Origin: an uncultured delta proteobacterium
Lineage (GTDB): Bacteria > Desulfobacterota > Binatia > UBA9968
DNA length: 64,000 nucleotides
Assembly: GCA_963737905.1 (NCBI GenBank)
Contig: CAVTUQ010000009.1
Span: 64,001-128,000, forward strand
Reading direction: 5' to 3'
Under the pieces are notes generated by a model. That model did not search any database and was not told the DNA's origin. It saw nothing but the letters and a program-made list of their open reading frames with translations. Each line of letters starts with the position of its first letter. Position 1 is the first letter of the stretch. Shown here in pieces: positions 14,833-32,356 of the stretch. The position numbers were made by a program, and so were the translations under genes.

Positions 14833-14948
14833 ATCGTTCAAAACGTTCAAGCGGTTCAAGACGTTCAAGCCGTTCAAGATGTTCAAGCCGTTGTTCCGAT
14901 CGAACAGTTTGAACGAATTGAACGCTTTGAACGACTTGAACGAGTTGG
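14833..14948. repeat. 9-nt tandem-repeat hairpin (GTTCAA units then TTGAAC units)
   Basis: Six nGTTCAAnn units followed by about five TTGAAC units. Confidence 0.85.
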
Positions 14949-14954
14949 AGGGAT

Positions 14955-16310
14955 ATGGACCGACTGGAATTAAGCCAGGATTTGGGGCGGGACATCCTCG
15001 CCATGGCAAAGTCTCAGGGTGCTTCCCAGAGCGACGTTGTCATGGTGGAGAGTGACTCGTTTTTTGTAACGGTGCGGCTGGGCGAAGTGGAGAAAATCAG
15101 CCAGGCTCAGGAAAAACGCCTGGGTCTTCGCTTGTTTTTCGGCTCCAGCTCGGCTTCGGCGTCAACCTCCGATATCTCCAAAAAATCGGTTGGCCGTTTG
15201 GTGGAAGATACCACCCGAATGGCCCGGGCCACGGCCCAAGATCCGCACAGCGGGCTGCCGGCGGCCGAAGATCTTGCCCGCGAGATTCCCGAGCTGGATC
15301 TATTGGACGGCGGTGCTCGAACAATCTCCGTCGAAGAAAAAATTCAAATGGCGTTGGCGGCGGAAAAAACCGCCCTGGAGTATGACCCACGGATCACCAA
15401 CTGCGAGGGTGGGGAGTTCTCGAATCAGTTCGGGCGGGTCATCTATGTCAACAGTCAGGGCTTTTCCGGCGAGTACGAGGGTTCAACGTTCGGTCACTCG
15501 GTGGCGCCGGTTGCCGCGCAGAACGGCACTATGCAGCGGGACTATTGGTATTCATCGAATCGGAAATTCTCCAGGCTGGAGTCGCCCAAAAAGGTCGGCG
15601 AAAAAGCGGCGCAGCGCGTGTTGAGGCGACTGGGTGCGAAAAAAGTCAAAACCTGTGAAGTTCCCATAGTCTTTGATCCGGAGATAGCCGCTTCTCTGCT
15701 ACGGAATTTATCATCCGCTATTTCCGGTTATTCATTGTACAAGGGCGCATCGTTTCTGGTGGATAAACTTGGAGCCCAAATCGCTTCGGACTCCGTCACG
15801 GTGATTGACGATGGAACCATTCCGGCCGCGCTGGGCTCCAGGCCCTTCGATGCCGAGGGACTACCAACGACAAAGAAAATCATCGTCGAAAAAGGGCGCC
15901 TCCAGAGTTATCTCTTGGACACTTACAGCGGCAGAAAATTGGGAATCGCGTCCACGGGTAATGCTTCACGTTCAGTGGGAGAACCGCCGGGCGTGGCGCC
16001 GTCGAATTTCTATTTGACTCCGGGGGTACACTCTGCCGACGAAATTATCGGCTCGGTGAAGCAAGGTTTCTACGTCACCGAGCTGATCGGCTTCGGAGTT
16101 AATATGGTGACCGGCGACTATTCCCGCGGCGCGAGCGGTCTCTGGATTGAAAACGGAGAGCTGAGCTATCCGGTGGAAGAGGTGACGATCGCCGGTAATC
16201 TCAAGGAGATGTTTCAAAATATCGAGATGGTGGGCGCTGATCTTGAAATGCGCGGTAGAATCGCGGCGCCAACCATCAAGATTTCTCAAATGACCGTAGC
16301 GGGAGATTAG
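14955..16310 (+). CDS. pmbA: TldE/PmbA protein
   Basis: MQRDYWYS, PFDAEG, YLLDTYSGRKLG, TGDYSRGASG, EVTIAGNL; follows tldD. Confidence 0.93.
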   Translation: MDRLELSQDLGRDILAMAKSQGASQSDVVMVESDSFFVTVRLGEVEKISQAQEKRLGLRLFFGSSSASASTSDISKKSVGRLVEDTTRMARATAQDPHSGLPAAEDLAREIPELDLLDGGARTISVEEKIQMALAAEKTALEYDPRITNCEGGEFSNQFGRVIYVNSQGFSGEYEGSTFGHSVAPVAAQNGTMQRDYWYSSNRKFSRLESPKKVGEKAAQRVLRRLGAKKVKTCEVPIVFDPEIAASLLRNLSSAISGYSLYKGASFLVDKLGAQIASDSVTVIDDGTIPAALGSRPFDAEGLPTTKKIIVEKGRLQSYLLDTYSGRKLGIASTGNASRSVGEPPGVAPSNFYLTPGVHSADEIIGSVKQGFYVTELIGFGVNMVTGDYSRGASGLWIENGELSYPVEEVTIAGNLKEMFQNIEMVGADLEMRGRIAAPTIKISQMTVAGD

Positions 16311-16327
16311 CTACAAAAAAACCGAGG

Positions 16328-16384
16328 CTTGAAGATCGAGGATCGAAGATTGCAATTCTCCATCCTCGATTCTCCATCTTCGGT
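16328..16384. repeat. 7-nt tandem-repeat hairpin between convergent genes (probable terminator role)
   Basis: gaagatcgaggatcgaagattg ... ccatcctcgattctccatcttc. Confidence 0.6.
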
Positions 16385-16388
16385 CCTT

Positions 16389-16598
16389 TCAGAGCACCTT
16401 AAATCCTGCTTTTAACACTGCACGCAAAAAGTCATCGATGTGAGACTGGCTGGAATCAAAATCGATAACCGCTACACTGCGCTCCAGATTGAAATCGACA
16501 CGATCCACGCCGGGGACGCTTTGAAGCGCTTGCCTCAGAACCGGCAGATTCTCGGATGTCAGGTTTTCAACGGAAATGATGGCAGTCTTTGTTGGCAT
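16389..16598 (-). CDS. HMA-fold small protein lacking CxxC
   Basis: ALQSVPGVDRVDFNL...AVLKAGF pattern of heavy-metal-associated domains; no Cys. Confidence 0.75.
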   Translation of the reverse strand: MPTKTAIISVENLTSENLPVLRQALQSVPGVDRVDFNLERSVAVIDFDSSQSHIDDFLRAVLKAGFKVL

Positions 16599-17036
16599 GT
16601 TTCAGGATCGCCTTTTTGGAATCTGACAGAACCCTCTCTTCGTTTCAACAACAATAAAAGTCTTGACGTCGGCTAAGGGTCGTTTCGCCCCGCTCTTTAG
16701 CGGTTTAGAAATTATCGGCCAAAACTTCAGCCAAAATTTTGTTGACAGCGAGATTGTTCCTATGCAAAAGATAGCCACGGCTTAGCGGAATCGTTGGCGA
16801 GCCGTGCCTTTCTGGACCTCGTTCCGCTAGAGAAGGGACGACGCGGAGATCAAGAGTTTTATCGCGTCTTCCAATGGTGATTTTGTGATTTGCTTTAACT
16901 ATCCCACCTCGCACGGCCGTTCAGTCAACTGACCATGGATGAGAACGTGTAGCCCGTCAAGGACGGCGGTGGCAACTGGGTGTGGTAAGTCCCCGACTCA
17001 ATCACGCCCAACACCTTGCCGGAGGGAGGGTTCAAC

Positions 17037-18887
17037 ATGAAATTTCGAATCATCGGCCACGTTTTTGTACTGCTTTGCATCGCGGCCTCTGCCGGAGTCA
17101 CCCTTCTCAAGCTCTCTCCCGCTGCCGATCACAACGATCCCAATGCCGTCAACTCGATCTTCTCGGACATCGATGTCAGCGCTGCCGACCTTTACGATAT
17201 CTTCGGATGGCCAGCGGACGACACGACCGGCGGGGAAAAGGTCGTGATCGCGCTCACTTTCGCCTCGGTTCCCAAGGCCGGCGTCTTTGATTCCGACATG
17301 TTGTACCGCATTCTAGTCAGTCCGACTCCACGGGTTGCGCCGCAGCTCAAAGATGATGACGGTCTGGAAGTGGTGCTAAAGTATTTCGAAGCGATCAAGA
17401 CCAACTATGCGAGCCTCAAGCCGGAGGAAGTCCGGGTCACGGTCGATAAGGATGGCCGGGCGAAAATTAATTTTATCGGCTTTCCCGGTGGCAGCTTTGT
17501 CAAGGTCATCGACACCAATAAAGTTACTACGATCGACACGCCAGACGGCAACTCGCTCCAAGCTTATATCGGTGGCCGCGACGATGCGTTTTTTAACGAT
17601 CTGCCCGGCTTTTTCCGTTCCATCAACTATGCGCCGCAGTTCTATGACGTTCCTCACACAATGACGGATACCCGCGAGCTGAAGATACCCAAAACTCTGA
17701 TCGAATTGGAAGGCAACAAACTATTCAATTTTGACCCCGCCAATCCCAAGCACGGCCAGGGAGTCAAGCTCAAACTGCCGGCAGGCCCGCTCACGTGGAG
17801 CGGCAACAAATATTTCAAGGACAATAACGGCAATTACCGCTTTGTATACAGCGGAAAGGACGCGCAAGCCGGCAGAAACATCAATGCGATCATTCTCGAA
17901 ATGCCTCTGGCTTTTCTTACGAAATCGCCGGACGTGGACCGCATCGTCAACACGTGGGGCGAGAGCTGGGTCCTCAAGGCCGCTCATAAAATCGAAACGA
18001 TCCCCGATGACCGCGCCCCGGTCAAGGGACCCTTCCTGCTTCAGTATCCGTGGCTTGTCGGGGGCATCGCGATCTTGCTTGGCGCGCTGCTGATCCTTCT
18101 TGGGTTCAGAGCCTTGTCGCAACGCTCCGCCAACTCCTGGGCCAGGCCCGCCAGCCGCTTTATTCTGGGCATTGTGCTCGTGGTCTTGGGCGCGGGCTAC
18201 GGCATCATCGTCGGTAAGTTTGCCGCCCAGAAGCCCGAACTCGCGCGGCCCGAGTACCAACTCGACGACGAGTTGAAAAGATACAAGCTTGTCGATACCG
18301 ACGGCCAGGCTTTCGCCGATGCCGGTTTGAGCGAGCGGGAGGATGACCGGCAATTGGGGGCGTTCAATTTCTGGCTCGCGCCCCACTTCATCACCCGGCT
18401 CGCCCATTTGGGGTGGGGCTTCGGACCGTCGATCACCGCGTTGGGACTACGTACTTCCTTCGATCATGACAACTCTCCGATTTCCGTATACAAGACATAC
18501 GCTTCGCCGATAGAGGCTTTTCCGCGGGTCAAGAAAGTCGTGCTCCAGCAACTGAACATGCCGGACGACACGTGGAACAAAAAGAAGCTAAACATTCCGC
18601 TGCGGCGTGGCGTGGAGATCTTCATACCCAACGTCAACGCCATCGACATGGATACGACCGGCACGTGGCCGTTCGGGCGGCGCCCGGAGGATCAGGTCGC
18701 CACCCGGTTTCTCTCGTTGTTTCTCGATATGAAAGCGGAGATCAACGGCAAGCGCTACAACGTCGAAACGCTGGGGGATCAGTCTTTGTGGGATCACGCG
18801 CCAGTCGAGCCGAAGACGCCGCCCAATCCACTGAAAAACGACAAGGAATTTCTCAAGCAGTTTCCTTATCTGGCGGAGCCGTGGTGA
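17037..18887 (+). CDS. DUF4331-family exported protein with internal TM hairpin
   Basis: Signal peptide then ADHNDP, DLYDIFGW, GRDDAFF, GRRPEDQV, C-terminal FPYLAEPW. Confidence 0.75.
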   Translation: MKFRIIGHVFVLLCIAASAGVTLLKLSPAADHNDPNAVNSIFSDIDVSAADLYDIFGWPADDTTGGEKVVIALTFASVPKAGVFDSDMLYRILVSPTPRVAPQLKDDDGLEVVLKYFEAIKTNYASLKPEEVRVTVDKDGRAKINFIGFPGGSFVKVIDTNKVTTIDTPDGNSLQAYIGGRDDAFFNDLPGFFRSINYAPQFYDVPHTMTDTRELKIPKTLIELEGNKLFNFDPANPKHGQGVKLKLPAGPLTWSGNKYFKDNNGNYRFVYSGKDAQAGRNINAIILEMPLAFLTKSPDVDRIVNTWGESWVLKAAHKIETIPDDRAPVKGPFLLQYPWLVGGIAILLGALLILLGFRALSQRSANSWARPASRFILGIVLVVLGAGYGIIVGKFAAQKPELARPEYQLDDELKRYKLVDTDGQAFADAGLSEREDDRQLGAFNFWLAPHFITRLAHLGWGFGPSITALGLRTSFDHDNSPISVYKTYASPIEAFPRVKKVVLQQLNMPDDTWNKKKLNIPLRRGVEIFIPNVNAIDMDTTGTWPFGRRPEDQVATRFLSLFLDMKAEINGKRYNVETLGDQSLWDHAPVEPKTPPNPLKNDKEFLKQFPYLAEPW

Positions 18888-18926
18888 GGCTTTCGGGGCG
18901 GAGAAAACCCTGCGTACAGGACGGTG

Positions 18927-20192
18927 ATGCCAATGCGATTGTTCAAGCCGATGCTAATCCTAGTGGCGGCGGTCTGTTTGTCGTTTCCCTTGACCAGTCT
19001 GAGCCACCGCAAACCAAGCCCACTGACGGACTATGAGCTCGAGCTGGCGCAAATCGAAAAGGACATCGCTGAGATCGAAGGCGACGTATTTACCCCTCCG
19101 GTCGATATCGACAAGGGCCTCAAATTTCTGCACCGCATGTATCACCGCGTCCAGCTCACCGGCGGTGTGGCCGATGTGCAAGCGATGGAGCCCGCTATCG
19201 ATCGCGCGCTCCGGGAGCTCGGACCCTTGACGGGTCTCTACCTTCTCAAGGCCAATCTCGATTTCAAGCTTCATCGGCTGAAGCAAGCCGACCAGGACAT
19301 CGCGGCGCTTTCCCGGTTCGCGGGCGATGCGCGAATCGTGGCCCTAAAAGCCGGCATCGACTTTCAACGGGGCCGATACGAAGCCTCAAAAATGGGTTAC
19401 CTGAGCGCGGTCGAAAAAAACTCCACCTGGGATAATCTTGCTCGGCTCGCCTATGGGTTAGGGAAGTTCGGTGATGTCGATCTCGCCGACCGCCTGTACC
19501 GTCAGGCGGAAGAGGACATCTCGGTCAAGGAGATGCGCGCGTACGCCTGGGTGGAGTTGCAAAGGGGACTGTTGGATTTGAACCGGGGCCGCTATGACGA
19601 AGCGATGGGCCATTACCGGCAGGCCGGGAAGGCGTATTCCGGTTACTGGCTGGTCGATGAGCACATGGCGGAGCTTTTGGGCGCGACCAAAAAGTTCGAC
19701 GCGGCGGCGGCGCTTTACGAGTCGGTGGTCGCGCGTGCGCCGCTGCCGGAGCTTCAGCAGCGGCTCGGCGATCTCTACGTGTTCATGGGCAAGCCCGAAC
19801 AGGCAAGACCGTGGCACGACAAGGCGTTGGCGGGCTATCTCGATTCTGCGGCGCGCGGCGAGGTCAACTACTATCATCATCTCGCCGGATTTTATGCCGA
19901 CGTGCGCGGGGATGGCGCCGAGGCGGTTAAATGGGCAGAGAAAGACCTCGCGCTGCGCCCCCACTTCGCCACCCAGGACGCGCTGGCTTGGGCGTTGTAT
20001 CGCGCCGGCCGCTTCGAAGAAGCGCGTAACGTAAGCCGTGAAGCGCTTTCGTCCGGCGTAAAGGACGCGCACCTTTTCTTCCACGCCGCGATGATCCATC
20101 TGGCGGCCGGAAAAACCGACGAGGGCAAACAGCTTCTAAAGAAAGCCGGGGAGATCAACCCCGGCTACGAGAATTTTCATGCGCATCGCTGA
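18927..20192 (+). CDS. Exported tetratricopeptide-repeat protein
   Basis: Signal peptide, repeated A/L/Y helical units (DALAWALYRAGRFEEA), C-terminal FHAHR. Confidence 0.82.
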   Translation: MPMRLFKPMLILVAAVCLSFPLTSLSHRKPSPLTDYELELAQIEKDIAEIEGDVFTPPVDIDKGLKFLHRMYHRVQLTGGVADVQAMEPAIDRALRELGPLTGLYLLKANLDFKLHRLKQADQDIAALSRFAGDARIVALKAGIDFQRGRYEASKMGYLSAVEKNSTWDNLARLAYGLGKFGDVDLADRLYRQAEEDISVKEMRAYAWVELQRGLLDLNRGRYDEAMGHYRQAGKAYSGYWLVDEHMAELLGATKKFDAAAALYESVVARAPLPELQQRLGDLYVFMGKPEQARPWHDKALAGYLDSAARGEVNYYHHLAGFYADVRGDGAEAVKWAEKDLALRPHFATQDALAWALYRAGRFEEARNVSREALSSGVKDAHLFFHAAMIHLAAGKTDEGKQLLKKAGEINPGYENFHAHR

Positions 20193-21300
20193 ACGATTGA
20201 AGCTGTTTTTAATTTGCCTCTTCGTCTGGGCGGCCGTAGCGCCGCGCATCGCGACGGCGCATCCAGTGGCGCAAGGCGCGCTGGAGATCGTCGTACTTCC
20301 GGAACGAGTTAGCATGACCGCCCGGGTATCTATGGAAGAAGTGATCGTCGCCGAAGCTTACGTCGGGCGGAAAAACGCTTCGGCCCTGGAGATGGTGCAC
20401 GCGCACGGCGCGTATCTGCTCGCGCATTTCCGCGTCGCGGCGGATGGGCGGTTGCTCGACGGGCGCGTGGTCAAAGTTCCCGAACAAGCCAACGGCCGCC
20501 CGAGCTACCAGCTCGAATACCGGCTCGCGGGCGGCGCGCCCGGGCAAGTTGCGTTGGAACAGGACGTGCTGCGCGAGTTCGAGTTCGCGCCGGGCAATCC
20601 ATGGGAGGCGAGTTACGTGGTGCGTGTCCGGCGGGATGGCGGACCTGCGGTTGAGGGCTTGTTGTTGAGTTCCAAGCAGCCACTCATTCTCGATTTGAAC
20701 CGGATAACGTCCGGCATCGATAAAGCGCGGATGGTGAAGGAATACATTCATCATGGGATCATGCACATCCTGTCGGGTTATGATCATCTCCTCTTCATCG
20801 CCGCGCTGGCGCTGGCTGTCGCGACCTTGTGGGACCTGGTCAAAGTCATCAGCGCCTTTACGCTTGCCCACTCGATCACGCTCACGCTCTCAGTGCTGAA
20901 CGTCGTCAGGCTGCCGGAAAATATCGTCGAACCGATGATCGCGGCGAGCATCGTGTTCGTCGCCCTTCAGAACGTGATCGTGCCCGAGCGCAGCCGCGGC
21001 GCCGGCAGACTTTGTGTCGCTTTCTTTTTCGGTCTTTTCCACGGCCTCGGCTTCGCGGGTGGTCTACTCAGCGCGATGGAAGGAATGGCCGGTTTGGCGG
21101 TGGGTCTGGCCATCGCTGCGTTCAGCGCAGGGGTCGAGATCGGTCATCAAGTGGTCGTTCTCCCGATTTTTTGCGCTCTAAAAATGATGCGCGAGCGGAT
21201 GTCTCAGCAGTCGGCTTCAATTCCCGAACGTGTGCTGCGGTACGGTTCCGCCGGGATTTGTGCGGCCGGTATGTTCTACTTGGTTGCAGCGTTGCATTGA
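20179..21300 (+). CDS. HupE/UreJ-family membrane protein
   Basis: Signal then AHP, GYDHLLF, FTLAHSITL, VEPMIAASI, FGLFHGLGFAG, GVEIGH. Confidence 0.88.
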   Translation: MRIAERLKLFLICLFVWAAVAPRIATAHPVAQGALEIVVLPERVSMTARVSMEEVIVAEAYVGRKNASALEMVHAHGAYLLAHFRVAADGRLLDGRVVKVPEQANGRPSYQLEYRLAGGAPGQVALEQDVLREFEFAPGNPWEASYVVRVRRDGGPAVEGLLLSSKQPLILDLNRITSGIDKARMVKEYIHHGIMHILSGYDHLLFIAALALAVATLWDLVKVISAFTLAHSITLTLSVLNVVRLPENIVEPMIAASIVFVALQNVIVPERSRGAGRLCVAFFFGLFHGLGFAGGLLSAMEGMAGLAVGLAIAAFSAGVEIGHQVVVLPIFCALKMMRERMSQQSASIPERVLRYGSAGICAAGMFYLVAALH

Positions 21301-21360
21301 GATTACCGGCAAAGTTACCCAGCAACGGCTGCCGAACGGACGGAGCGGTAAGGAGGAAGA

Positions 21361-24087
21361 ATGAGCAGGAAAGATTGTTGTGTCGGAATATTGATGCTGC
21401 TCTGCGCGATCATCCTCGCGAGTTGCGGAGATCGGCCGAAGCCGGGCACCGTAGTGGACGAGGCCAAGAAGGCAGGGCTGACGGCCAAGGACCTGCCGGG
21501 ATCGGACGACGACTACCTGCGTGCCATGGATCGCGGCCTGGATGAAGAGGCGGTGCACAAAGCTCTGCCCTTCCTGTCCAAGGAAGAGGCCTGGAAGTCT
21601 TATAACCGAGGCCGCAACAACTGGGTCGTCTGGACGGCAGGCAACGACACGCTCTGGGATTACTTGGCCAACAACGCCTTCGGCGCCTTCGATCTATTGA
21701 AGATTGTCTCCTCCCATCCGGGGATCAGGTATTGCGGCAACAAAACCCCCGTGTACGGCTACGGCGGCAAGGGCGATTACGCCAAAGACCAGCAGTCCGA
21801 ATACGGCAAGGAGAAATCTTCTCCGGCACCGTATCCGCCGGGTTACTACGCTTACGACGAAGATGACGAGTGCAAGGGCGACGACCGCCAATTCTACGAA
21901 GTCTCCCGCGAGAACCGGTGGAAATATCTCGGCCTGGTCAACGAACCGGGCCTCCAACAGTGGGACCCCAAGGGCTGCGACTGGAAGAACGACAAGAAGA
22001 CCGATGACGAACCGTACGGCAAGTGCGGCGACCCCAATCGTTTCGGCCTCTGGCTGGACAAGCGCGTCGGCGCTCCCGACCCGTTCGAGGATGAGAAGAA
22101 ATATCCGGGCGTGAAAGTCGGAGCGCGTGGGAAGACCGTTCCGGCCGGCTCCTACTACGGCTATGCGAGCGGCGTCGTCGGACTACGACTCTTTCCCAAT
22201 CCCGCTTTCGACGAAGCGGCCAAAAAGAAATGGGATCCGATCAGGTACTACACCGACCCGGATTACTACAGCGACAAAAACCTGGTGCGCCCGTATCGGG
22301 TCGGGATGTCCTGCGGCTTTTGCCACGTCGGTCCAAGCCCCACCGAACCTCCCAAAGATCCCGAGAATCCGGAATGGAAGAACCTCAACTCCAACCCCGG
22401 CGCGCAGTACTTCTGGCTGGACAGAATCTTTTTCTGGAATCCGTATAAGCGGCACGAGAACTTCATCTACCAACTCTTCCACACTTCGCTTCCGGGGTCG
22501 CTCGACACCTCCCTCGTTTCTAGCGATAACATCAATAACCCGCGCACGATGAACGCCGTCTACAGCATCGCGGCACGTCTAAAGATGGCCGAGTTTCACC
22601 CGGAAAAATTGACCGGTGGCGAGCGCAACAACAGGCAGTTCAACGACTTCGACAGAACCAAAGTTCTCTCAAAATACTTCATACCACCGGACACCGTCCT
22701 CGCGCCTCACGTTCTAAAAGACGGCGCCGATTCGGTCGGCGTACTCGGAGCTTTGAACCGCGTGTACATCAACATCGGCCTTTTTAGCGAGGAATGGCTG
22801 CTCCATTTCAAGCCGCTGATCGGGAACCTCCCCGGAAAGAGGATCACGCCCATCGAGATCGCCGTACTGGAGAAGAATTCCACTTACTGGAACGCCAACG
22901 TGACGCAGACTCCCGATCTGGCGCTGTTTTTCCTCGCGAGCGCCCGGCCCGATTACTTGAAAGAAGCGGCTGGCGGCAAGGACTATCTCACCACGGATCA
23001 AAAAAAGCTCAATCACGGCAAGATCGTCTTTGCCGAGAACTGCGCGCGTTGCCACTCGGGGAAACAGCCACCGCCACCGCCCGAAATCGACTATGCAAAG
23101 TGCGGCGGTCCCGGTTACCTAGATTGCTGGAACCGCTACTGGAGCTGGACCAAGACGGAAGCGTTCAAGAAGCAGATGCGCGAGATCGTCATGCGCGACG
23201 ATTTTCTGGAAGACAATTTCCTCTCCACCGAGCTTCGCGTTCCCGTCACCTTGCTCCAGACTAACGCGTGCAGCCCGCTTGCGACCAACGGTCTCAGAGG
23301 AGACATATGGGACAACTTCACCTCCACGACCTACAAGGAGCTGACTGCCGTCGGCAAATTCACCGTCCACAAACCCAAGACGGGCGAGGCCTGGGAGTAC
23401 GACATGCCCGGCAAAGGGCGCGGGTACACCCGCCCCGCGTCGTTGATCAGCCTGTGGTCGACGGCGCCGTACTTGCTCAATAACGCTGTTGGACCTTTCT
23501 ACGGAGAACCCAGCGTCGAGGCGCGCATGGCGTCTTTCAACGAATCGATCCAGCAGATGCTCTGGCCGGAAAAGCGCCAGAAGGACTCGCTTCTGGGAGA
23601 CAAAGTCCCCGGCTACATGCAGCGCACGACGACGAGAAGTTACCTGAGAGTTGCGTGGGGATACTTGCCGGGGCAATTCGCGGCGTTTATGGACTGGCTT
23701 AGCGGCTGGCTCCCCTGGCTCTTTGGCCAAACCGGGCTTGAGATCGGCCCGATCCCCAAGGGAACGCCGGTCGGCCTCCTGGCCAACTTGCCATTGGTGT
23801 CTGAGAGCGAGCGTCCGGAAGACCGAGTGGCGTATGCCGAAAAGGTGATTGATTTGCTGAAAAAGGCCGGCAAGGATTTGAAGTCTCTGCCAGCCAATGC
23901 GACCGACGAGCAGGCGCGCGAGATCTTCGCCGGCGTCGGAGATCAGTTGCTAAAGCTCAGTAAGTGCCCCGACTTCGTTGTCAACCGCGGCCATTATTTC
24001 GGCACCAGTTATTTCAAGGATAAAGACGAGCCGGGACTCAGCGACGATGACAAGTGGGCGCTGATCGAGTTTTTGAAAACATTCTAG
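21361..24087 (+). CDS. Large di-heme c-type cytochrome lipoprotein (RoxA/CCP-like superfamily)
   Basis: Lipobox LASC, CGFCH and CARCH heme motifs, SLWSTAPYLLNN, C-terminal ALIEFLKTF; AGGAGG RBS. Confidence 0.78.
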   Translation: MSRKDCCVGILMLLCAIILASCGDRPKPGTVVDEAKKAGLTAKDLPGSDDDYLRAMDRGLDEEAVHKALPFLSKEEAWKSYNRGRNNWVVWTAGNDTLWDYLANNAFGAFDLLKIVSSHPGIRYCGNKTPVYGYGGKGDYAKDQQSEYGKEKSSPAPYPPGYYAYDEDDECKGDDRQFYEVSRENRWKYLGLVNEPGLQQWDPKGCDWKNDKKTDDEPYGKCGDPNRFGLWLDKRVGAPDPFEDEKKYPGVKVGARGKTVPAGSYYGYASGVVGLRLFPNPAFDEAAKKKWDPIRYYTDPDYYSDKNLVRPYRVGMSCGFCHVGPSPTEPPKDPENPEWKNLNSNPGAQYFWLDRIFFWNPYKRHENFIYQLFHTSLPGSLDTSLVSSDNINNPRTMNAVYSIAARLKMAEFHPEKLTGGERNNRQFNDFDRTKVLSKYFIPPDTVLAPHVLKDGADSVGVLGALNRVYINIGLFSEEWLLHFKPLIGNLPGKRITPIEIAVLEKNSTYWNANVTQTPDLALFFLASARPDYLKEAAGGKDYLTTDQKKLNHGKIVFAENCARCHSGKQPPPPPEIDYAKCGGPGYLDCWNRYWSWTKTEAFKKQMREIVMRDDFLEDNFLSTELRVPVTLLQTNACSPLATNGLRGDIWDNFTSTTYKELTAVGKFTVHKPKTGEAWEYDMPGKGRGYTRPASLISLWSTAPYLLNNAVGPFYGEPSVEARMASFNESIQQMLWPEKRQKDSLLGDKVPGYMQRTTTRSYLRVAWGYLPGQFAAFMDWLSGWLPWLFGQTGLEIGPIPKGTPVGLLANLPLVSESERPEDRVAYAEKVIDLLKKAGKDLKSLPANATDEQAREIFAGVGDQLLKLSKCPDFVVNRGHYFGTSYFKDKDEPGLSDDDKWALIEFLKTF

Positions 24088-24123
24088 CTCGATGTGCAAC
24101 TACGACGTGAAAGGAAATCACGG

Positions 24124-25308
24124 ATGAAAAAGACAGCCCTATTCTTTCTCGGTCTCGTGCTACTTCTCTTTCCGGCAGCCATCAAGAGTTCGGATCACGC
24201 CGATCCGATCAATCTTGAAGTGTTGGAATCCGGCATCACCGACCTCTTCGCCTTTCCGGACGGTGACCAGATGATCGTCATCCTCAATACCCGGCGGGCT
24301 CTGACCGCGCCGCCGCCGTACCAACTCGAGCCTTTCGAGTTCGCGATCTTCATGGACCTTCACACCCAAGTCACTGTCGACAACGCCGAGGAGCGCGCGC
24401 GCTACGGCGGTTCGATCGCCAACCCCGAAGGCATCAAACCCGACGTCACGATAAAAATCCGCCTCAAGAACGACGTCACGTTGAACAGCATCCAGTACCA
24501 AGGTCTGGAAAACACCAATGGCATCAAGCTGTTCACCGGCGTGCGCGACGACCCATTCATTTTCCCGCGCTTTTTCAAGCGCAACACGATTGCAATGGTG
24601 CTGAGCATCCCGTTCTCCGCGTTCCCCCAGGACCAGCGGGACTGGATACTGTGGGCGACCTCGACGCGGCTAAAGGACGGCGTGCAGATCGACCACGTCG
24701 GCCGGTCTAATCGTTCGCAGCAGGGCCGGTTTGATTTCTTAAACACGCTGCCGCCGAGCCAGCACGTGGCGGCGATCAAGGCGTATAACCAAACCAGGGT
24801 GCGAATCGAGAAGTCCCTGATGGAATACTTGCCGCCGCTCGTGAACGGGTTTCAACCGTTATTTAAAATTCGCTCCTACGACTATTTCCCCGACGTGATG
24901 ATCTACACCAAGCAATATCCGATTGGATTTCCTAACGGACGGACGTTGACCGACGACGTCGCGCTGTTGACTTGCGAGCAGGGGGACTGCCCGCTGGTCG
25001 AGAGCGCCTATGTTGACAGCCCGCAGTGGCCGCGCGCGACGGTCAATGACAAGCCGTTCCTGAAAGAGTTTCCCTATCTCGCAGAGAAGTGGGAAGAAAG
25101 TGAAATAGCGCCGAAGCCGGCAGAGCCTGTCGGTGTTTTCAGCGCGCTGGCGGCGGCCTGGGACACCGGGAAATTCTTTACCGAAGCGACCGCGAACTGC
25201 TGCACGCCGGTCAAGAGAACTGCGATTGCGGCGATCATTCTGGTGCTCCTGATAATACCGATATTGGTCTGGCTGATTACTCGATGGCGTCGCCGGGTGA
25301 AAACCTGA
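24124..25308 (+). CDS. Second DUF4331-family protein with C-terminal TM anchor
   Basis: Signal then SDHADP, ITDLFAF, GVRDDPF, IDHVGR, FPNGRTLTDDV, FPYLA, TM plus RWRRR tail. Confidence 0.8.
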   Translation: MKKTALFFLGLVLLLFPAAIKSSDHADPINLEVLESGITDLFAFPDGDQMIVILNTRRALTAPPPYQLEPFEFAIFMDLHTQVTVDNAEERARYGGSIANPEGIKPDVTIKIRLKNDVTLNSIQYQGLENTNGIKLFTGVRDDPFIFPRFFKRNTIAMVLSIPFSAFPQDQRDWILWATSTRLKDGVQIDHVGRSNRSQQGRFDFLNTLPPSQHVAAIKAYNQTRVRIEKSLMEYLPPLVNGFQPLFKIRSYDYFPDVMIYTKQYPIGFPNGRTLTDDVALLTCEQGDCPLVESAYVDSPQWPRATVNDKPFLKEFPYLAEKWEESEIAPKPAEPVGVFSALAAAWDTGKFFTEATANCCTPVKRTAIAAIILVLLIIPILVWLITRWRRRVKT

Positions 25309-25338
25309 TCACGCGATCGTCTTTAGGGAGCGGAAGTT

Positions 25339-26412
25339 ATGGATGCGGAGTTTTTCGGGATTGAAGGAATCACCGATGAAGATCGCGCCTATCAAGGCTC
25401 GCGGTTCTCGGAGGTGCAGGGCGTGCTCTTTGCCAATCCTTACCAGAAAGTTTGGGGCCGCGCCGGCGAGCCCCCGTTGCCCGTCTACGAAGTGACGCTC
25501 GGCAGCGTTTTGCGCGGCGTCCTGCCGTTCGGCGAGCCGTATCTGTTTCGGAAGGCCACCGAGCGTGCCGTCGATTCGCACGCCGATTTGCGTTGGGGCC
25601 CCGACCGCAAGGGTTATCGCCGCCTGCTTCATCCGAACGGTATATGTCTTACGGGCTTTTGGGAGATCACCGAAGAGAATCCATATTCGGGTTACTTCCA
25701 AAAAGGCAGCCGGGCGCTGGCGATCGGACGCTATTCCACCTGCTGCACGGAAACGCGGCGCGGCCATGCGCGCTCGCTGTCGTTGGTGGGGAAGCTCTAT
25801 CCCACCACTGACCCGAAGCACTTAGAGCCGTTTCACACCGCCAACTTCATCACCCAGCAGGATATCGGCGGTGACTATAGCGACTATATCAACGACGCGG
25901 AAGTGCGCAACGCTCCCGACACCCGCCTCTGGCGCCGGGGGGGCGCCGTGCCGGTTCTGCTGGTGACGGGCGCGGTGTTTCAGCGCGTCGATAAGCAACC
26001 TTCGCAGCGCCAGCTGTATCAGATCGCCGAGCTTGGCAAGCCGAAGGACGCGCCCACGCGCGCGCCGGAGTTCATGCGCCTGTTGGTCGCGCCGGAGCAG
26101 CCCAGGATCGAAGGCGCAGCGTTAGATTTTCGCGACGAGATCATGGCGCAGATTTTCGATAAGGGCGATCCGAAGCCAAAGCGCACGCTCACCTTCAACA
26201 TCGAAGTGACCGACGAGGGATCGACGCGCGGATTGCCGTTCTTCCAGCGACGCTCGTTCAAGAATTGGCGCCGCATCGGAAGAATGGTCTTCGATAACGC
26301 CGTCGCCTCTTACAACGGTGATTTCGTCATCCACTTTAGCCATCCCACCTGGCGCAACGATCGCAACGACCCCTCGACCACCGCCCGCGTCGGCGGGCGT
26401 AAAGTGCGCTGA
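25339..26412 (+). CDS. Catalase-related heme-domain protein
   Basis: RRLLHPNGICLTG distal-His motif, YSGYF, IGRYS, RSLSLVGKL, WRRIGRMVF; short length typical of mini-catalase-like proteins. Confidence 0.65.
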   Translation: MDAEFFGIEGITDEDRAYQGSRFSEVQGVLFANPYQKVWGRAGEPPLPVYEVTLGSVLRGVLPFGEPYLFRKATERAVDSHADLRWGPDRKGYRRLLHPNGICLTGFWEITEENPYSGYFQKGSRALAIGRYSTCCTETRRGHARSLSLVGKLYPTTDPKHLEPFHTANFITQQDIGGDYSDYINDAEVRNAPDTRLWRRGGAVPVLLVTGAVFQRVDKQPSQRQLYQIAELGKPKDAPTRAPEFMRLLVAPEQPRIEGAALDFRDEIMAQIFDKGDPKPKRTLTFNIEVTDEGSTRGLPFFQRRSFKNWRRIGRMVFDNAVASYNGDFVIHFSHPTWRNDRNDPSTTARVGGRKVR

Positions 26413-26460
26413 CGTTGCGGCCTTCGAACGGTGACGAAGAAGATGCGAACGAGGTGAACT

Positions 26461-28344
26461 ATGAACTCAGGAACTAACGGACAGAGTGATTTTGAATACA
26501 TCGTGGTCGGCTCGGGCGCCGGCGGCGGAACCGTCGCGGCGCGATTGGCAGAGGCCGGGCACAAAGTGCTCGTACTGGAAGCGGGCGGCGACCCGTACAA
26601 ACTGAAGGGCGGTGTGCGGTGGGACCCGAAAAGAATCAGCTTGCCGGACGATTATGACGTTCCGTGTTTCCACGGTATCTCCACCGAGAGTGACGCGATC
26701 CGCTGGGACTTCTGGGTGCGTCACTACAGCAACGATCAGCAGCAGCAGAAAGACCCCAAGCATCGCGACATCAACGGAGAGCCCAGGATACTCTATCCAC
26801 GAGCCGGGGGCTTGGGAGGCTGCACGACGCACAACGCCATGATTACGGTCTACCCCCACAACAAGGATTGGGAAGATCTCGCCGATCTGACGGGCGATCC
26901 TTCGTGGAAGGCGGAGAACATGCGCAAGTATTATCAGCGCATGGAGAACTGTCATTATCGAAGGTTTCCGTGGCGGTGGATATACAAACTCTTTGGCTGG
27001 AATCCCATACGTCATGGCTACGACGGCTGGCTCTCCACAGAAGTCGCGGTTCCGGTTGAGGCGCTGAAGAAAGATAAACGACTCGTGGAGGTGATTGTAA
27101 AATCGGCCAAAGCCGCGGCAAAGAGTGTTGAGATGCCCGTCAAGCGTGTCTGGTGGTCCTTGCTCGGCCGGCTCGACCCGAACGACTGGCGCTTGGTGAA
27201 CGATAACGCGGTCGGAATTCGGCTGCCGCCTTTGGCCACGTATCGGCGCCGTCGCAACGGCACACGGGAATTTTTGCTGGATGTCCAAAAGAGATATCCG
27301 GGCAATCTGACCATAGAGCTTAACGCTCTTGCAACCAAAGTGTTGTTCGATGGGAAGAATCGAGCGGTCGGCGTCGAGTATCTCAAGGGCGAGAGGCTGT
27401 ACCGGGCCCACTGCGATCCCAGTGATCAGCCGAGCGAAGAAAAGTCGGTCCGGGCAACGCGCGAAGTGATCCTCGCAGGCGGCGCCTTCAACACGCCGCA
27501 GCTTTTGATGCTTTCCGGAATTGGGCCGAAGGACGAGCTGAAGAAACACGGCATCGATGTTCGCGTCGGTCTTCCCGGCGTGGGACGAAATCTCCAGGAC
27601 CGCTACGAGGTCGGCGTCGTCAACCGGATGAAAACAGACTGGACTGTCCTTAAAGACGCCATGTTCGATACGAGTGACCCACAGTTCCAAGATTGGAAGG
27701 GAAGCCAACGCGGCGTCTACATCACCAACGGGGCGGTCATCGCTGTCATCAAAAAGTCGGACAAGTCGCGCCCGCTACCCGATCTCTTCTGCTTCGCGCT
27801 GGTGGGTAAGTTTCGCGGCTACGAGCCGAACTATTCGCAGGAGATCGTCCTTCACCACAACTATCTCACCTGGGCGGTTTTGAAGGCGCATACGAACAAC
27901 ACCGGAGGCACAGTCGCTTTGAAATCCGCCGACCCACGCGAAACGCCCGAAATTAATTTCCACTACTTCGAAGAAGGGACGGGCAAATGGGAAGAAGACG
28001 TCGAGTCGGTGGTCGGTGGCATCAAGTTTGTCCGCGCGATCAACTCACACGTCCAGGATGTTTTCGAGGAAGAAGAGGCGCCGGACCAGGAGGAGCGAAA
28101 GGATCTGGCTCAATTCGTAAAGGATAACGCCTGGGGCCATCACGCCTCCTGTACTTGCAAGATCGGGCGCCAAGACGATCCGATGGCGGTCCTCGACGGC
28201 AATTTTCGAGTGTATGGGACCGAGGGCCTGCGCGTGGTCGATGCCTCCGTGTTTCCAAGGATCCCGGGATTTTTCATCGTTACTTCGGTTTACATGATCG
28301 CGGAAAAGGCGGCCGACGTGATTCTCGCCGATGCGAGAAGATAA
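26461..28344 (+). CDS. GMC-family FAD oxidoreductase
   Basis: VVGSGAGGG, LEAG, YPRAGGLGGCTTHNAM, TPQLLMLSGIG, GHHASCTC, LRVVDASVFP. Confidence 0.92.
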   Translation: MNSGTNGQSDFEYIVVGSGAGGGTVAARLAEAGHKVLVLEAGGDPYKLKGGVRWDPKRISLPDDYDVPCFHGISTESDAIRWDFWVRHYSNDQQQQKDPKHRDINGEPRILYPRAGGLGGCTTHNAMITVYPHNKDWEDLADLTGDPSWKAENMRKYYQRMENCHYRRFPWRWIYKLFGWNPIRHGYDGWLSTEVAVPVEALKKDKRLVEVIVKSAKAAAKSVEMPVKRVWWSLLGRLDPNDWRLVNDNAVGIRLPPLATYRRRRNGTREFLLDVQKRYPGNLTIELNALATKVLFDGKNRAVGVEYLKGERLYRAHCDPSDQPSEEKSVRATREVILAGGAFNTPQLLMLSGIGPKDELKKHGIDVRVGLPGVGRNLQDRYEVGVVNRMKTDWTVLKDAMFDTSDPQFQDWKGSQRGVYITNGAVIAVIKKSDKSRPLPDLFCFALVGKFRGYEPNYSQEIVLHHNYLTWAVLKAHTNNTGGTVALKSADPRETPEINFHYFEEGTGKWEEDVESVVGGIKFVRAINSHVQDVFEEEEAPDQEERKDLAQFVKDNAWGHHASCTCKIGRQDDPMAVLDGNFRVYGTEGLRVVDASVFPRIPGFFIVTSVYMIAEKAADVILADARR

Positions 28345-28410
28345 GGAGATTCGGCGATTCCTGGTGCGTACAAAAATTTTTTACGCTGGTCGGCCTGCCT
28401 AAATGCGGAA

Positions 28411-31298
28411 TTGTTTTACCTGCCGGTGCTGAGCAGGCCGGTCCCTTGTCTCATAGTGGCCGCGATGCTCTCCTTTGGAGGATGCGCCGGCAAGCCGGGG
28501 GATTTGATCGCTTGCGGCAAAGTCGCATGGAGTGGGTTTCGCAAGGTTGCCGACGACCGAGCCGAGCGGTTCCTGGGCAAGGTCAAAGAGGAGACCGCCC
28601 GCTGCCGCGGCGGTGAGAAAGCCGTTGAGTCACGGGGCCTGCCATGGGTCGACTGGCAGAATTACTGGGCAACGGGCGACATCGCTAGCAAAGGACCGGA
28701 GCCGCTCTGGAAGCTCGGGCACCTGAGCCCCAACGGCCGTGGCATCGACGGTGCGCTGCTCGATCTCGAATATCAGCGCATGGAGTTGATCAAATTCAAC
28801 CTCTTCGACAACAGCGGGACCTACAAAGATTACGTGCGCGGCCGCGACGGCTTCGAGGTGCTGCGCTGAAGATTTGGGACGAGATGCGGTTGCCCAAAGA
28901 CCATCCGCATTATGCAGCCGTCGGCGGCGATGGCCAGCAGCTCTGCCGGGGCGAGTTGATTCGCTTCCGCAACCTGACCGGAATTTGCAACGATATCAGA
29001 AATCCGCTCATGGGCTCGGCCGATCAGCCGTTCGCGCGCAACGTTCAATTCGAGGTCACCTTCCCGGATTTGGGCCAAAACTTGTATGCGCGAAACCGGC
29101 ACGGCGATCGCCTGGGGCTGTTGAAGCCAGACCCGCAGGTGATCAGCCGCAAGCTCTTCACGCGCGCCCAATCGCATCCTGAAAAATGCCGCGCGGGGCA
29201 CGGGCTTCCAGGTGATTCGGCCCAGGCGGAATGCGATTACAAGAAAGCGCCGTTCTTCAACGTGCTGGCGGCCTTCTGGATCCAGTTCATGACGCACGAT
29301 TGGTTCTCGCACTTGGAGGAAGGGCACAACTCGCCTGAGATGATGACGGTGGGCTGTGCGTCGCAGCGGATCGGGGATATCGAGCAGCCGTTGAATCCGC
29401 AGCAAGTTGCAAAATTGGGCTGCCGTCCCGGAGATCGGATGGACAAGAGCTATGTGAGTGAGGTCGGCGAACCTTCAAAGTTCACTCATCAGGGAAGGGA
29501 GTATCTGAATCGTGCGTACAAGACCACCCGCAATACCGTTACGGCATGGTGGGACGCCTCGCAAATTTACGGATGGGATGAGGCCTCGCGGCAGCGCGTC
29601 AAGCGCGATCCCAGCGATCCGGCGAAATTGCTAATGCTATCGACACGCTCCGGCGAAGCGCAAGGCTACCTTCCGGTGTTCGGCGCTTCCGATCCAATCA
29701 ATCCCCAGTGGGCCGGACAGGAAGCGACGGCCTTCCCGGACAACTGGACGATCGGCCTGAGTTTTTTTCACAATGTCTTCGCCCGCGAGCACAACCAGTT
29801 TGTCGATGAGTTCAGAAAACGCGTTGCGGATAAGCCGGATGAAGACTCGGGCCTGCGCAATCCGGCGCGGCCGGATGAGAAGATTCCCTATAAGAATGTG
29901 ACGGCGGACGAACTTTTTGAAATCGCTCGGCTCGTCGTCGCCGCAGAGATCGCCAAGATTCACACCCTCGAATGGACGCCGCAGTTGCTTTATGATGAGC
30001 CGCTCCACCTGGCGATGAACGCCAATTGGCACGGACTGTTTCGCGGTAAGGACTTGGTCCAGGCAGCGCTAGAGAAAATCATCGCCAACAGCTTCAGCCA
30101 ATCAAAAGACCCAAAGAAAGCCGGCAAGTGGTACTCGGTCTTCGCATCGGGCCCCGGAATCTTCGGCCTCGGCAGTCGCGTGTATACGGACGACGCGATC
30201 TTTGCGAAATACGACCCAAAAAAAACCGATATCTGGAGCCTGAAAAACCCCGATCACGTCAATGGCGGGACCAATCACTTCGGCTCGCCATTCAACTTTC
30301 CGGAAGAGTTCATCACGGTGTACCGGCTGCATGCGATGGTTCCCGATCTGATCGAATATCGCGAGTCGGGGAAATATCCGAACGTGATCCTTAACAAGAT
30401 CCCGGTGGTAGACACCTTTCGCGGCCGCGCCACCACGGCGATGCGGAAGCGCGGGCTGGCGAACTGGGCGCTCTCTATGGGGCGCCAGCGACTGGGGGTG
30501 CTCACGCTGCAGAACCATCCACAGTTCCTGCAGAACCTGGAACTGCCCCGGCTGCACAGCGCGACGGGGAAGATCGATGTGGCGGCGCTCGACATTATCC
30601 GCGACCGCGAGCGGGGCGTGCCGCGCTTTAATGAATTTCGCCGCCAGTACGGTCTCAGGCAACTGACGAGCTTCGACGATTTCGTCGACCGGCGGCTGCC
30701 CAAGGACTCCCCCGAGCTGGCGGAACAGGAACGATTGATGGGTATCCTGCGGGAGGTGTACGGTCAGCACAAATGTGACGCTTCGAAAATTATCACTACG
30801 GCGCAGGTGAACGACGACGAGAAGCATACGCCGATCAACGACTGCCTGGGACACGCCGACGGAAGCCTGGTGGACAACATCGAAGATGTCGATACGGTCG
30901 TCGGTTGGCTCGCGGAGTTTCCCAGGCCGCACGGTTTCGCGATTTCCGAAACTCAATTTCAGGTTTTTATCCTCAATGCGTCACGCCGGCTCTTTAGCGA
31001 CCGGTTTTTTACTTCGAGCTTTCGCCCGGAGTTTTACAGCCACCTCGGTGTGAAGTGGATCAATGAAAACGGCCCTGACGGTGTAATCAAGGAGAAGAAC
31101 AAGTCGAACGGTCGTGAGGTCGAGATCTCGCCATTGAAACGAGTCTTGCTGCGAACCATTCCGGAGTTGGCGCCGGAGCTCGCACCTGTCGTGAACGCGT
31201 TCGACCCGTGGGCCCGCGATCGTGGCGAGTACTATTCGTTAAACTGGAGGCCCCGCCCTGGAGCTGAGTCAGATCAGGTGTTCAGAGTTTTGCAATGA
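28411..31298 (+). CDS. Peroxidase-cyclooxygenase superfamily heme protein (alpha-dioxygenase-like) lipoprotein, split by a -1 frameshift near 28857
   Basis: ORFs 28411-28869 and 28884-31298 join if one base is added at gag-gtg (E-G-A-A-L-K-I-W-D-E-M); motifs WIQFMTHDW, WWDASQIYG, IAKIHT, EEFITVYRLH, DRERG, ASRRL; start uncertain. Confidence 0.8.
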
Positions 31299-31477
31299 GT
31301 CGCCGCGTCTGCCAACTGTCGGGGGTCATGGGCCGTCGCTCGAGTGGCCGAAAAGACTCATCAGCGCCATTTATAACGCCAAAGACTCTATAGCTCAGGC
31401 AACAATTCGCAAAGCCGCCAAGTCAGATGCGTCAATGATCTTCAATCGGTTCTCCGCGTCACGTAATTCACGCACCC

Positions 31478-32356
31478 ATGACATCGATTCCCGCTGAGCT
31501 TTACGCGTTGGTGAACGCGTTCTTGTTTGCGCTGCACAATATGTTCACCAAAAAGGCGCTCCGTTACTCGAACCCGGCCACCGCCGTGATCAGCGGTCTC
31601 TTGATCAATATTATTTTTCTCTGGGGTCTCTCTGTCTTGTTCGCGCCGTTGTCGTCTTTGACCAGGGCTTCGATTTTGATCTTTGCGGCGGTTGGCCTGT
31701 TTCAGCCCGGGCTCACGCGCTTGCTTAGTTATAAAGGCATCGACGCCCTCGGTGTGGCGATTACCGATCCGATCCGAGCGACTACACCGCTGTTCAGCGC
31801 TATGATGGCGATCATTTTCCTCGGCGAAAAACTCACACTGCCGATCGTGGTTGCTACTTTGATGATTGTGGCGGGTATTACGCTGTTGTCGTGGCGTAGC
31901 GGTTCGATGAAACTCGCCGGGTCGGCGGTTTTTCTGTGGTACCCGATCGCAGCGTCGGCACTGGCGGGCGCTACTCAAGTCGTTCGCAAGGTCGGTCTGG
32001 CCGCGGTTCCCCATCCGCTTGTCGCCGCGGCGGTGACGGCGACTTCCTCGTTGGTCGTGTCGCTACTGACTCTGTGGTACGTCGAAAGGAGTCAACAGAC
32101 TTGGAAGATGAACCGGCAGTGCTTTGGGTGGTTTCTCGCCGCCGGCTTAACCATCAGTGTGGCCATGGTGTGTATCTACTATGCGCTGGATCTAGGTAAG
32201 GTTTCGGTGGTGATCCCGATCGCCAGCACCGGGCCGTTTTTCTCCTTGATCTTGGCCGCAACGTTTTTGCGCGACGTCGAGCGCGTCACGTCAAGGATCG
32301 TTCTCAGTGCCGCCATGCTCGTGGGCGGGGTAGTGCTGCTTACGCTGTGGAAGTAA
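31478..32356 (+). CDS. EamA/DMT-family transporter
   Basis: About 10 hydrophobic helices in two repeats, FLGEKL, VSVVIPI. Confidence 0.85.
   Translation: MTSIPAELYALVNAFLFALHNMFTKKALRYSNPATAVISGLLINIIFLWGLSVLFAPLSSLTRASILIFAAVGLFQPGLTRLLSYKGIDALGVAITDPIRATTPLFSAMMAIIFLGEKLTLPIVVATLMIVAGITLLSWRSGSMKLAGSAVFLWYPIAASALAGATQVVRKVGLAAVPHPLVAAAVTATSSLVVSLLTLWYVERSQQTWKMNRQCFGWFLAAGLTISVAMVCIYYALDLGKVSVVIPIASTGPFFSLILAATFLRDVERVTSRIVLSAAMLVGGVVLLTLWK

Follow-up and report, generated by a model that had tools for sequence, protein, structure and literature searches.

A run of eight genes in an uncultured delta proteobacterium raises the question of whether such a set makes up one pathway and, if so, on what it acts. 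The genes, here called g1 to g8, lie in a 64,000-nucleotide (nt) stretch of DNA (GenBank assembly GCA_963737905.1, contig CAVTUQ010000009.1, positions 64,001 to 128,000 of the forward strand; "the window" throughout). They encode two DUF4331 proteins (g1 and g5), an exported TPR protein (g2), a HupE/UreJ-2 permease (g3), a di-haem cytochrome (g4), a protein with a modelled catalase fold (g6), a GMC-family flavin adenine dinucleotide (FAD) oxidoreductase (g7) and an alpha-dioxygenase-like (alpha-DOX-like) haem protein (g8). A sequence-only reading of the window had proposed that they form an undescribed, envelope-associated pathway that oxygenates a lipid or polymer. We found that the cluster is a real composite of recurrent sub-modules, and we tentatively read it as a system that oxygenates fatty acids or membrane lipids.

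Open reading frame (ORF) calling places eight ORFs on the plus strand, all in one direction, at 17037..31298 of the window. The gaps from g1 to g8, taken from the coordinates, are 36, −14 (an overlap), 60, 6, 30, 48 and 66 nt, which bears out the co-directional layout with small gaps and one overlap. The last value is valid only if the frameshift that leaves g8 in two frames is read through. The DUF4331, TPR, HupE, GMC and alpha-DOX-like assignments are backed by Pfam and PDB matches. Each of the eight genes is single-copy in the assembly (6.7 Mb in 46 contigs; 87% complete, 6.7% contaminated).

A network of recurrent gene links

To see which of the eight genes keep company elsewhere, we surveyed 80 of 224 genome loci anchored on g6, 50 of the 80 being at least 19 kb long. 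Among them are loci from Acidobacteriota, Alpha- and Gammaproteobacteria, Methylomirabilota (Rokubacteria), Binatia and Planctomycetota, with Methylocapsa aurea and Methylocapsa polymorpha as two of the species represented. Near g6, g4 was found at 19 loci and g7 at 20, with both together at 17; a DUF4331 gene of any kind was found at 14 loci, 11 of which also hold g4 and g7, so that DUF4331 stands alongside this pair at 11 of its 17 loci. A TPR gene was present at 13 loci, HupE, g5 and an An_peroxidase gene at 4 each, a patatin-like gene at 15 (9 also with g4 and g7) and an S8 subtilase gene of 1160–1200 aa at 6. The An_peroxidase genes are alpha-DOX-like in L002 and L067 and TPR-fused in L006 and L025. 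In L067, a metagenome-assembled genome (MAG) of a gammaproteobacterium, a patatin/alpha-DOX/P450 operon diverges from g6. Only one locus, L002, from a MAG of the Syntrophobacteraceae that is a close relative of the window, showed all eight genes; the L001 locus stops at a contig end. Gene order is plastic, since an S8 subtilase gene is inserted between g6 and g7 in L002.

Wherever g4 and g7 were both seen, they were neighbours. All five genomes tested carry g4, including three in which g6 is locally alone, and the pair was found elsewhere in the genome as g5-g4-g7 (M. aurea), g4-g7 (M. polymorpha) and g4-g7-g1-g2 (an Acidobacteriota chromosome). A second survey, anchored on the alpha-DOX-like gene, covered 80 metagenome loci of at least 554 matches; because many of these contigs are short, each count is a minimum. 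Here g7 was found at 11 loci, g4 at 7, an EamA gene at 9, P450 at 4–5, patatin-like and Tle1-like phospholipase genes at 5 each, a shorter RoxA-like cytochrome at 4, and a phospholipase C (PLC)-type phosphoesterase and a DyP-like gene at 3 each. The commonest neighbour cluster was the GMC gene, and a frequent layout was EamA(−) / alpha-DOX(+) / GMC(−) di-haem(−).

The eight genes are thus a network of recurrent pairwise links and no single conserved unit. Its hub is the g4–g7 pair, with g6 and DUF4331/TPR on one side and alpha-DOX and EamA on the other. Three unrelated lipase families and P450s surround both sides, and this network of links with lipases and P450s is the strongest argument for a fatty-acid or membrane-lipid substrate. 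The lipid theme of the sequence-only reading gained from the survey in this way, with patatin-like genes and phospholipases of three families among the neighbours and the alpha-DOX motifs kept in g8. What the present analysis adds is the fusion of DUF4331 to the catalase-fold domain, the link between alpha-DOX and EamA, and the interleaving of the modules.

Such a network might also arise without any eight- or nine-gene pathway, as a mosaic island in which functionally independent sub-modules travel together in the lineage: DUF4331/TPR/HupE for metal capture, the di-haem/GMC redox pair, the catalase-fold protein, and alpha-DOX with EamA. Most loci hold each sub-module without the others, and the confinement of the full set to L002 (L001 being incomplete), the subtilase insertion with its plastic order, and the apparent acquisition of the cluster all fit this explanation. 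It accounts poorly, however, for the way in which the genes are interleaved, tightly and on one strand, with g4 between g3 and g5 and g6 between g5 and g7. Nor does it predict that at least 13 cluster representatives join DUF4331 and the g6 domain in one protein, that DUF4331 accompanies g4 and g7 as often as it does (11/17), or that links of g4–g7 to g6 and to alpha-DOX recur across gene orders and phyla. We regard independent travellers as a somewhat unlikely explanation.

Several other genes were seen at the g6 loci. The S8 subtilase protein follows g6 in di-haem/GMC loci (L002 9601-13095, L025 7535-11020, L026 9088-12687, L031 5832-9410) and is absent from the window; a grouping of a 1164-aa S8 subtilase with g6 was rejected as a single-linkage artefact, as BLASTP finds no similarity between them. 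The TPR-fused peroxidase of L006 (11617-14001) and L025 (11586-13967), from Rokubacteria and Binatia MAGs, is a 794-aa fusion of TPR and animal haem peroxidase that lacks a signal peptide; its gene is located downstream of the module, and the protein belongs to a peroxidase subfamily that differs from the alpha-DOX-like one. In L067 a TIR-domain gene (13235-14185) lies 2 kb downstream of g6, past two ORFs without a Pfam match.

The cluster proteins and their predicted compartments

Table 1. Genes of the cluster and candidate accessory genes, with positions in the window.
Feature	Position	Strand	Basis or remark
HMA-domain ORF, 69 aa, without CXXC	16389..16598	−	divergent from g1; possible accessory, membership uncertain
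g1, DUF4331 protein	17016/17037..18887	+	Pfam; signal peptide
g2, exported TPR protein	18924..20192	+	Pfam TPR families
g3, periplasmic domain (~160 aa) and HupE/UreJ-2 permease	20179..21300	+	PF13795
g4, 908-aa di-haem c-type cytochrome lipoprotein	21361..24087	+	two CXXCH; distantly like RoxA and cytochrome c peroxidase (CCP)
g5, DUF4331 protein, C-terminal membrane anchor	24094..25308	+	Pfam
g6, 357-aa catalase-fold protein, unnamed family	25339..26412	+	structure model; no signal peptide
g7, GMC-family FAD oxidoreductase	26461..28344	+	Pfam, NCBIfam; no signal peptide
g8, alpha-DOX-like haem lipoprotein	28411/28884..31298	+	PF03098; split by a 1-nt frameshift
g9, EamA-family transporter	31478..32356	+	Pfam; probable ninth member

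The alpha-DOX-like gene g8 matches PF03098 (An_peroxidase) with 237.2 bits (cut-off 25). Its best PDB matches are plant alpha-DOX structures (rice 4kvj, E 3e-58; Arabidopsis 4hhr, E 2e-50), far ahead of lactoperoxidase and myeloperoxidase, and in the alignment with rice 4kvj FMTHDW faces FMVHDW, VYRLH faces VYRMH and ASRRL faces ASRRL. We take THDW of g8 to supply the putative distal His, VYRLH the catalytic Tyr and, three residues further, the proximal His, and SRRL the Arg that binds the carboxylate.

The L002 orthologue of g8 is a single ORF of 960 aa, whose first 141 residues match frame +1 of the window (28429-28851) and whose remainder matches frame +3 from 28866. In contigs from all three DNA runs, each from a different study, a single additional C behind 28856 removes the shift; it accounts for 8.06 of 12.4, 10.5 of 10.5 and 4.11 of 4.11 of the total depth. 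The N-terminal part directly precedes the main part at 80 of the 80 metagenome loci and forms one ORF with it at 77 (median 946 aa). The extra C in the three runs and the single ORF at these 77 loci indicate that natural g8 is intact, and the frameshift in the window reflects an error of the assembly or a lesion peculiar to the strain. Intact g8, of about 946–960 aa, has an N-terminal extension with a lipoprotein-type signal (…GGC), suggesting that the protein is probably exported. The EamA homologues that adjoin the alpha-DOX-like gene at 9 of the 80 loci are 72–93% identical to that of the window, and g9 probably belongs to the cluster. The predicted gene content stands for the eight, to be amended by this probable ninth member and by the split of the alpha-DOX gene.

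The di-haem assignment of the 908-aa g4 is upheld at sequence level: its predicted haem-attachment motifs, CGFCH and CARCH, are the same in all 12 homologues compared, and its N-terminus is of the lipoprotein type. PDB sequence searches with g4 returned only the generic cytochrome c motif and no RoxA, and Atlas look-alike clusters of g4 carry the RoxA-like family PF21419. Its partner g7 matches both GMC domains (PF00732 GMC_oxred_N, 82.8 bits; PF05199 GMC_oxred_C, 94.8 bits), and its FAD-binding GxGxxG motif, GSGAGGG at residues 17–23, is invariant. The nearest solved relative of g7 is choline dehydrogenase (E 1.5e-44), and the protein scores below the choline dehydrogenase equivalog cut-off of NCBIfam (223 against 732 bits). 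In typical GMC enzymes the second catalytic residue, a His or an Asn, lies close to the C-terminus. The C-terminal region of g7 reads PGFFIV, with five of the six positions invariant in 14 homologues, and because this stretch occupies the site of the second catalytic residue, g7 may be an atypical flavoenzyme.

Neither sequence nor profile searches linked g6 to any entry of Pfam (up to E 10), NCBIfam or the PDB, and the Pfam Catalase family PF00199 in particular was not matched at E ≤ 10. In one Atlas look-alike cluster of g6, 37% of the members carry PF00199. An AlphaFold2 (AF2) model built from 44 diverse sequences reached a predicted local distance difference test (pLDDT) score of 89.3; it replaced an unusable model from 20 close homologues (pLDDT 42.6). 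Foldseek ranked four kinds of protein first for the model, each with a probability of 0.99–1.00, namely the coral allene oxide synthase domain, the Mycobacterium avium 33-kDa catalase-related protein, chanoclavine synthase and true catalases. VIA-align gave Z scores of 11–12 (maximum 11.9) over about 190–200 residues to catalases and catalase-related proteins; 183 of 995 chains had Z ≥ 8, and the best 50 listed were all catalase or catalase-related. Judged by this model, g6 has a catalase fold, and the earlier label "catalase-like", for which sequence searches offered nothing, is upheld by structure.

The g6 family is large, with 3237 homologues and 800 representatives matched at the 50% clustering level. 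The best 120 of the 3237 matches come from several phyla and are mostly 73–89% identical, one being lower over a partial alignment. The family has an RxxHxxGxxxxG motif, with H98 kept in 35 of 44 sequences, and an R-x-S motif, with R131 in 44 and S133 in 42; D328, H332 and H335 are kept in 40–42. Both motifs align with the distal-His and haem-pocket stretches of a canonical large catalase that the same genome encodes, in a weak profile alignment (E 0.074). A complex prediction for g7 and g6 scored 0.00 with no verdict from the tool, which is evidence neither for nor against an interaction.

At least 13 fused proteins of 700–1060 aa, among the 150 representatives listed, have a g6 domain at the C-terminus. 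From the N-terminus they read signal peptide, an invariant SDHADP with DUF4331, 1 or 3 helices in most, and the g6 domain. The N-half of one of them, P0128, is 35% identical to g5 over 322 aa with the membrane helix included, so that g5 and g6 are the split form of a fused protein. By itself g5 scores 32.1 bits against DUF4331 (PF14224; cut-off 27), has a transmembrane segment at 377–395 and reads Ser-Asp-His at its predicted mature N-terminus; PDB sequence and profile searches with it found nothing useful.

The odd number of helices in the fusions points to a cytoplasmic position of g6. Signal or lipoprotein N-termini, with cleavage sites judged by eye and no predictor, are present in g1, g2, g4, g5, g8 and the N-domain of g3, and g6 and g7 have no signal peptide. 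Going by these signals, g6 and the GMC enzyme are probably cytoplasmic and the other cluster proteins probably face the periplasm. The sequence-only reading had likened the cluster to a dioxygenase working in tandem with a catalase-related lyase; a direct tandem of this kind is unlikely, because g8 has a lipoprotein signal, and g6 lacks a signal peptide and follows 1 or 3 helices in the fusions. A bolder interpretation is that g5 and g6 form a membrane-spanning device in which an exported X-Asp-His domain is wired to a cytoplasmic catalase-fold enzyme and which, with the di-haem/GMC pair, oxygenates membrane lipids from both faces; the g6 family, with a conserved Asp/His cluster of its own and a Tyr that is not universal, might then even use a cofactor other than tyrosinate-ligated haem. 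We offer this as a distinctly unlikely idea.

The remaining genes, g1 to g3, are best read, by analogy, as a putative Cu/Ni-type metal-handling trio. The metal side rests on the architecture of g3, the conserved X-Asp-His of g1 and g5 and the HMA ORF upstream; at gene level the trio's link to the redox enzymes is real. The g1 protein matches DUF4331 (PF14224) with 40.4 bits (cut-off 27), has an internal two-helix membrane hairpin (hydrophobic segments 346–364 and 382–400) and starts, when the mature N-terminus is read by eye, with Ala-Asp-His, part of an ADHNDPNAVN motif found in 10 of 10 homologues. In g3, HupE_UreJ_2 (PF13795) covers residues 189–340 with 130 bits, and an N-terminal His was read after the signal peptide ("ATA|HP" in the window, "AGA|HP" in L001 and L002); the N-domain matched no PDB chain at E ≤ 1, and hence not the Ang-1 structure. 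No enzyme of the cluster is known to need Cu or Ni, and the supply of a metal cofactor by DUF4331/TPR/HupE, suggested in the sequence-only reading, gained no support.

Two side observations concern these genes. The HMA ORF sits in the 700-nt spacer upstream of g1 and matches PF00403 with E 1.1e-6 (29.3 bits; cut-off 24.8). The g1-like ORFs of seven loci under Acidobacteriota names (L004, L005, L035, L048, L049, L056 and L058) open directly with M-ADHNDP and lack a signal peptide, unlike those of the window and L002, in which a signal peptide precedes ADH; a free Ala-Asp-His is thus kept by two routes, and the topology may differ.

If metal were the purpose of the whole cluster, the di-haem enzyme would oxidatively mature DUF4331, the metal would pass to HupE/UreJ-2, and the other oxidoreductases would be accessory. 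The MbnH/MbnP pair offers an analogy, a di-haem enzyme that matures a metal-binding partner. Once mature, both g1 and g5 are predicted to start with an ATCUN-like (amino-terminal Cu- and Ni-binding) X-Asp-His, kept in all homologues read, the upstream ORF adds an HMA domain, and g3 shares the N-terminal-His/HupE-UreJ-2 architecture that binds Cu and Ni according to PMC12537917. Other loci speak against it: M. polymorpha has g4–g7 without DUF4331 nearby, DUF4331 is found at none of the 80 alpha-DOX loci although 7–11 of them hold g4 and/or g7, and the Acidobacteriota g1-like proteins are the ones that lack a signal peptide. Metal acquisition also leaves the catalase-fold protein and the links to alpha-DOX, lipases and P450s unexplained. 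We consider it quite improbable as the function of the cluster.

Lipid oxygenation weighed against other readings

From folds, motifs, gene associations and topology signals we infer, with somewhat less than even confidence, that four recurrent sub-modules form a membrane-spanning system for the oxygenation of free fatty acids or membrane lipids. In plants and cyanobacteria, alpha-DOX uses O2 to convert fatty acids into their 2-hydroperoxy derivatives, whose decay yields chain-shortened aldehydes, and g8 would carry out the same conversion in the periplasm. There g4 would perform a second oxygenation or a peroxidase-type conversion. At the cytoplasmic face g7 may oxidise an alcohol or aldehyde product, and g6, held at the membrane through g5, may handle hydroperoxide or H2O2. 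The EamA protein g9 would move substrate or product, and g1, g2 and g3 would handle a Cu/Ni-type metal.

A number of observations weigh against this scheme. The sub-modules mostly occur apart: 53 of the 80 g6-anchored loci show no partner, and none of the 80 alpha-DOX-anchored loci holds g6, DUF4331, TPR or HupE. The co-occurrence of all eight families expected from the sequence-only reading was thus not found outside the one close relative. The proposed steps lie in two compartments, so that intermediates would need to cross the membrane. No lipase gene is encoded in the window, where g8 itself falls into two frames (28411-28869 and 28884-31298). The match of g4 to NF040606, a di-haem cytochrome c peroxidase subfamily, has an E of 1.3e-9 and 37.8 bits against a cut-off of 150, and PF21419 matches 4 of 12 g4 homologues (best E 1e-5) and not the g4 of the window. 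In g6, Y325, at the expected position of the proximal ligand, is present in only 21 of 44 members, and no alignment covers the region; for this reason, and because of the weak catalase profile match, we call the protein "catalase-fold" and not "haem enzyme". Contigs of one soil RNA library (X19) map to g6, to g7 and over the junction of g7 with g8, and span 8 of 30 bins, uncovered bins carrying no meaning; they are a weak hint of transcription, could stem from contaminating DNA and leave a single transcript unproven.

The peroxidase-like features could instead reflect detoxification of peroxide and oxidised lipids in an organism whose phylum is largely anaerobic, with a CCP-like peroxidase outside, a catalase-fold peroxidase inside, and the GMC and alpha-DOX enzymes as side activities. 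The weak NF040606 match of g4 and the catalase fold of g6 would be explained in this way, as would the very wide spread and high conservation of g6 in several phyla, and patatin-type lipases could excise damaged acyl chains. However, the genome already has its canonical large catalase, GMC oxidases and alpha-DOX make peroxides and do not remove them, and g4 lies far under the family cut-off. Detoxification therefore appears improbable, and we keep lipid oxygenation as the tentative reading.

The cluster looks horizontally acquired. Its guanine-plus-cytosine (GC) content is 0.583 against 0.545 ± 0.017 for the genome, and a value this high is reached by only 1.6% of 873 genome windows of the same size, in agreement with the richness noted by eye in the sequence-only reading. 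Moreover, a search of 400 further genomes from the same phylum (E ≤ 1e-20) found no g4, and the downstream flank in L002 is unlike that of the window. The phylum is largely anaerobic. Metagenome runs of soil and freshwater from several studies contain near-identical DNA.

The upstream flank is a TldD/PmbA pair, and the downstream flank consists of EamA, DTW and GFA genes. The tandem TldD/PmbA-type metallopeptidase genes (13349-16310) lie directly upstream and have a GC content at third codon positions (GC3) of 0.64, compared with 0.70–0.76 in the cluster genes. A promoter and terminator scan gave the same counts as shuffled sequence, Rfam over 16200-31600 returned one sub-threshold chance match and no riboswitch, and a tRNA scan of the window found none. 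We dropped the reading of the region as a defence island because PADLOC returned no defence system beyond generic FAD and subtilase matches.

The cluster matters because bacterial pathways of oxylipin formation and lipid oxidation are barely charted beyond Pseudomonas and cyanobacteria. Three unrelated, putatively O2-using haem proteins and a flavoenzyme recur together beside lipases in several phyla, Methylocapsa included, and the organism of the window, whose phylum is largely anaerobic, seems to have acquired them. A large conserved protein family without a Pfam model is given a fold and a gene context, and the DUF4331–g6 fusion ties the DUF4331 "metal" proteins to redox enzymes. For functional study, M. 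aurea and M. polymorpha are culturable carriers. Our literature search, which left supplements aside, found no paper containing "DUF4331" and none describing a RoxA-like/GMC cluster, consistent with the earlier view that no such system had been described.

Comparison with known systems

Several parts of the cluster resemble known systems and depart from them. In the case of g8 these are plant and cyanobacterial alpha-DOX (4kvj, 4hhr; PMC8720084), with which it shares the PF03098 haem domain and the THDW, VYRxH and SRRL motifs. Unlike them, it has at the N-terminus an additional conserved domain (about 145 aa) with the lipoprotein signal, as well as internal insertions, which bring it to about 950 aa against about 620. 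It differs also in having genes for di-haem, GMC and EamA proteins nearby and in being frameshifted in the window's assembly.

For g4 the nearest systems are RoxA and the Pseudomonas aeruginosa proteins PA2077/PA2078 (oleate 10S-dioxygenase/7,10-diol synthase; PMC4496055). Like these, g4 is large, exported and tied to lipid chemistry and has two CXXCH motifs; unlike them, it misses PF21419 in the window protein and is always paired with a GMC gene.

The small catalase-core fold of g6 is shared with the catalase-related haemoproteins, namely the coral allene oxide synthase domain (1u5u/3dy5), the M. avium protein (3e4w) and EasC (9jdc), with Z scores of 11.2–11.5 over 189–199 aligned residues. 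A distal-His-type motif is present, and fatty-acid dioxygenase and lipase genes are found in the neighbourhood. In contrast to those proteins, g6 has no sequence match to PF00199 or the PDB, has the Tyr in 21 of 44 members and often follows a DUF4331 domain and membrane helices in one polypeptide.

Finally, g3 resembles the anglerase-permeases, fusions of an Ang-1 or Ang-2 domain with HupE/UreJ-2 (Franco Cairo et al., Nat Commun 2025; PMC12537917). That paper gives dissociation constants of the Ang-1 N-terminal-His domain of about 74 nM for Cu and about 220 nM for Ni. As in the anglerase-permeases described there, g3 has a signal peptide, behind which the predicted mature protein begins with His; a periplasmic domain (about 160 aa) then leads to a PF13795 permease. 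It is unlike them in matching no solved chain and in being embedded among haem and flavin enzymes and DUF4331/TPR proteins.

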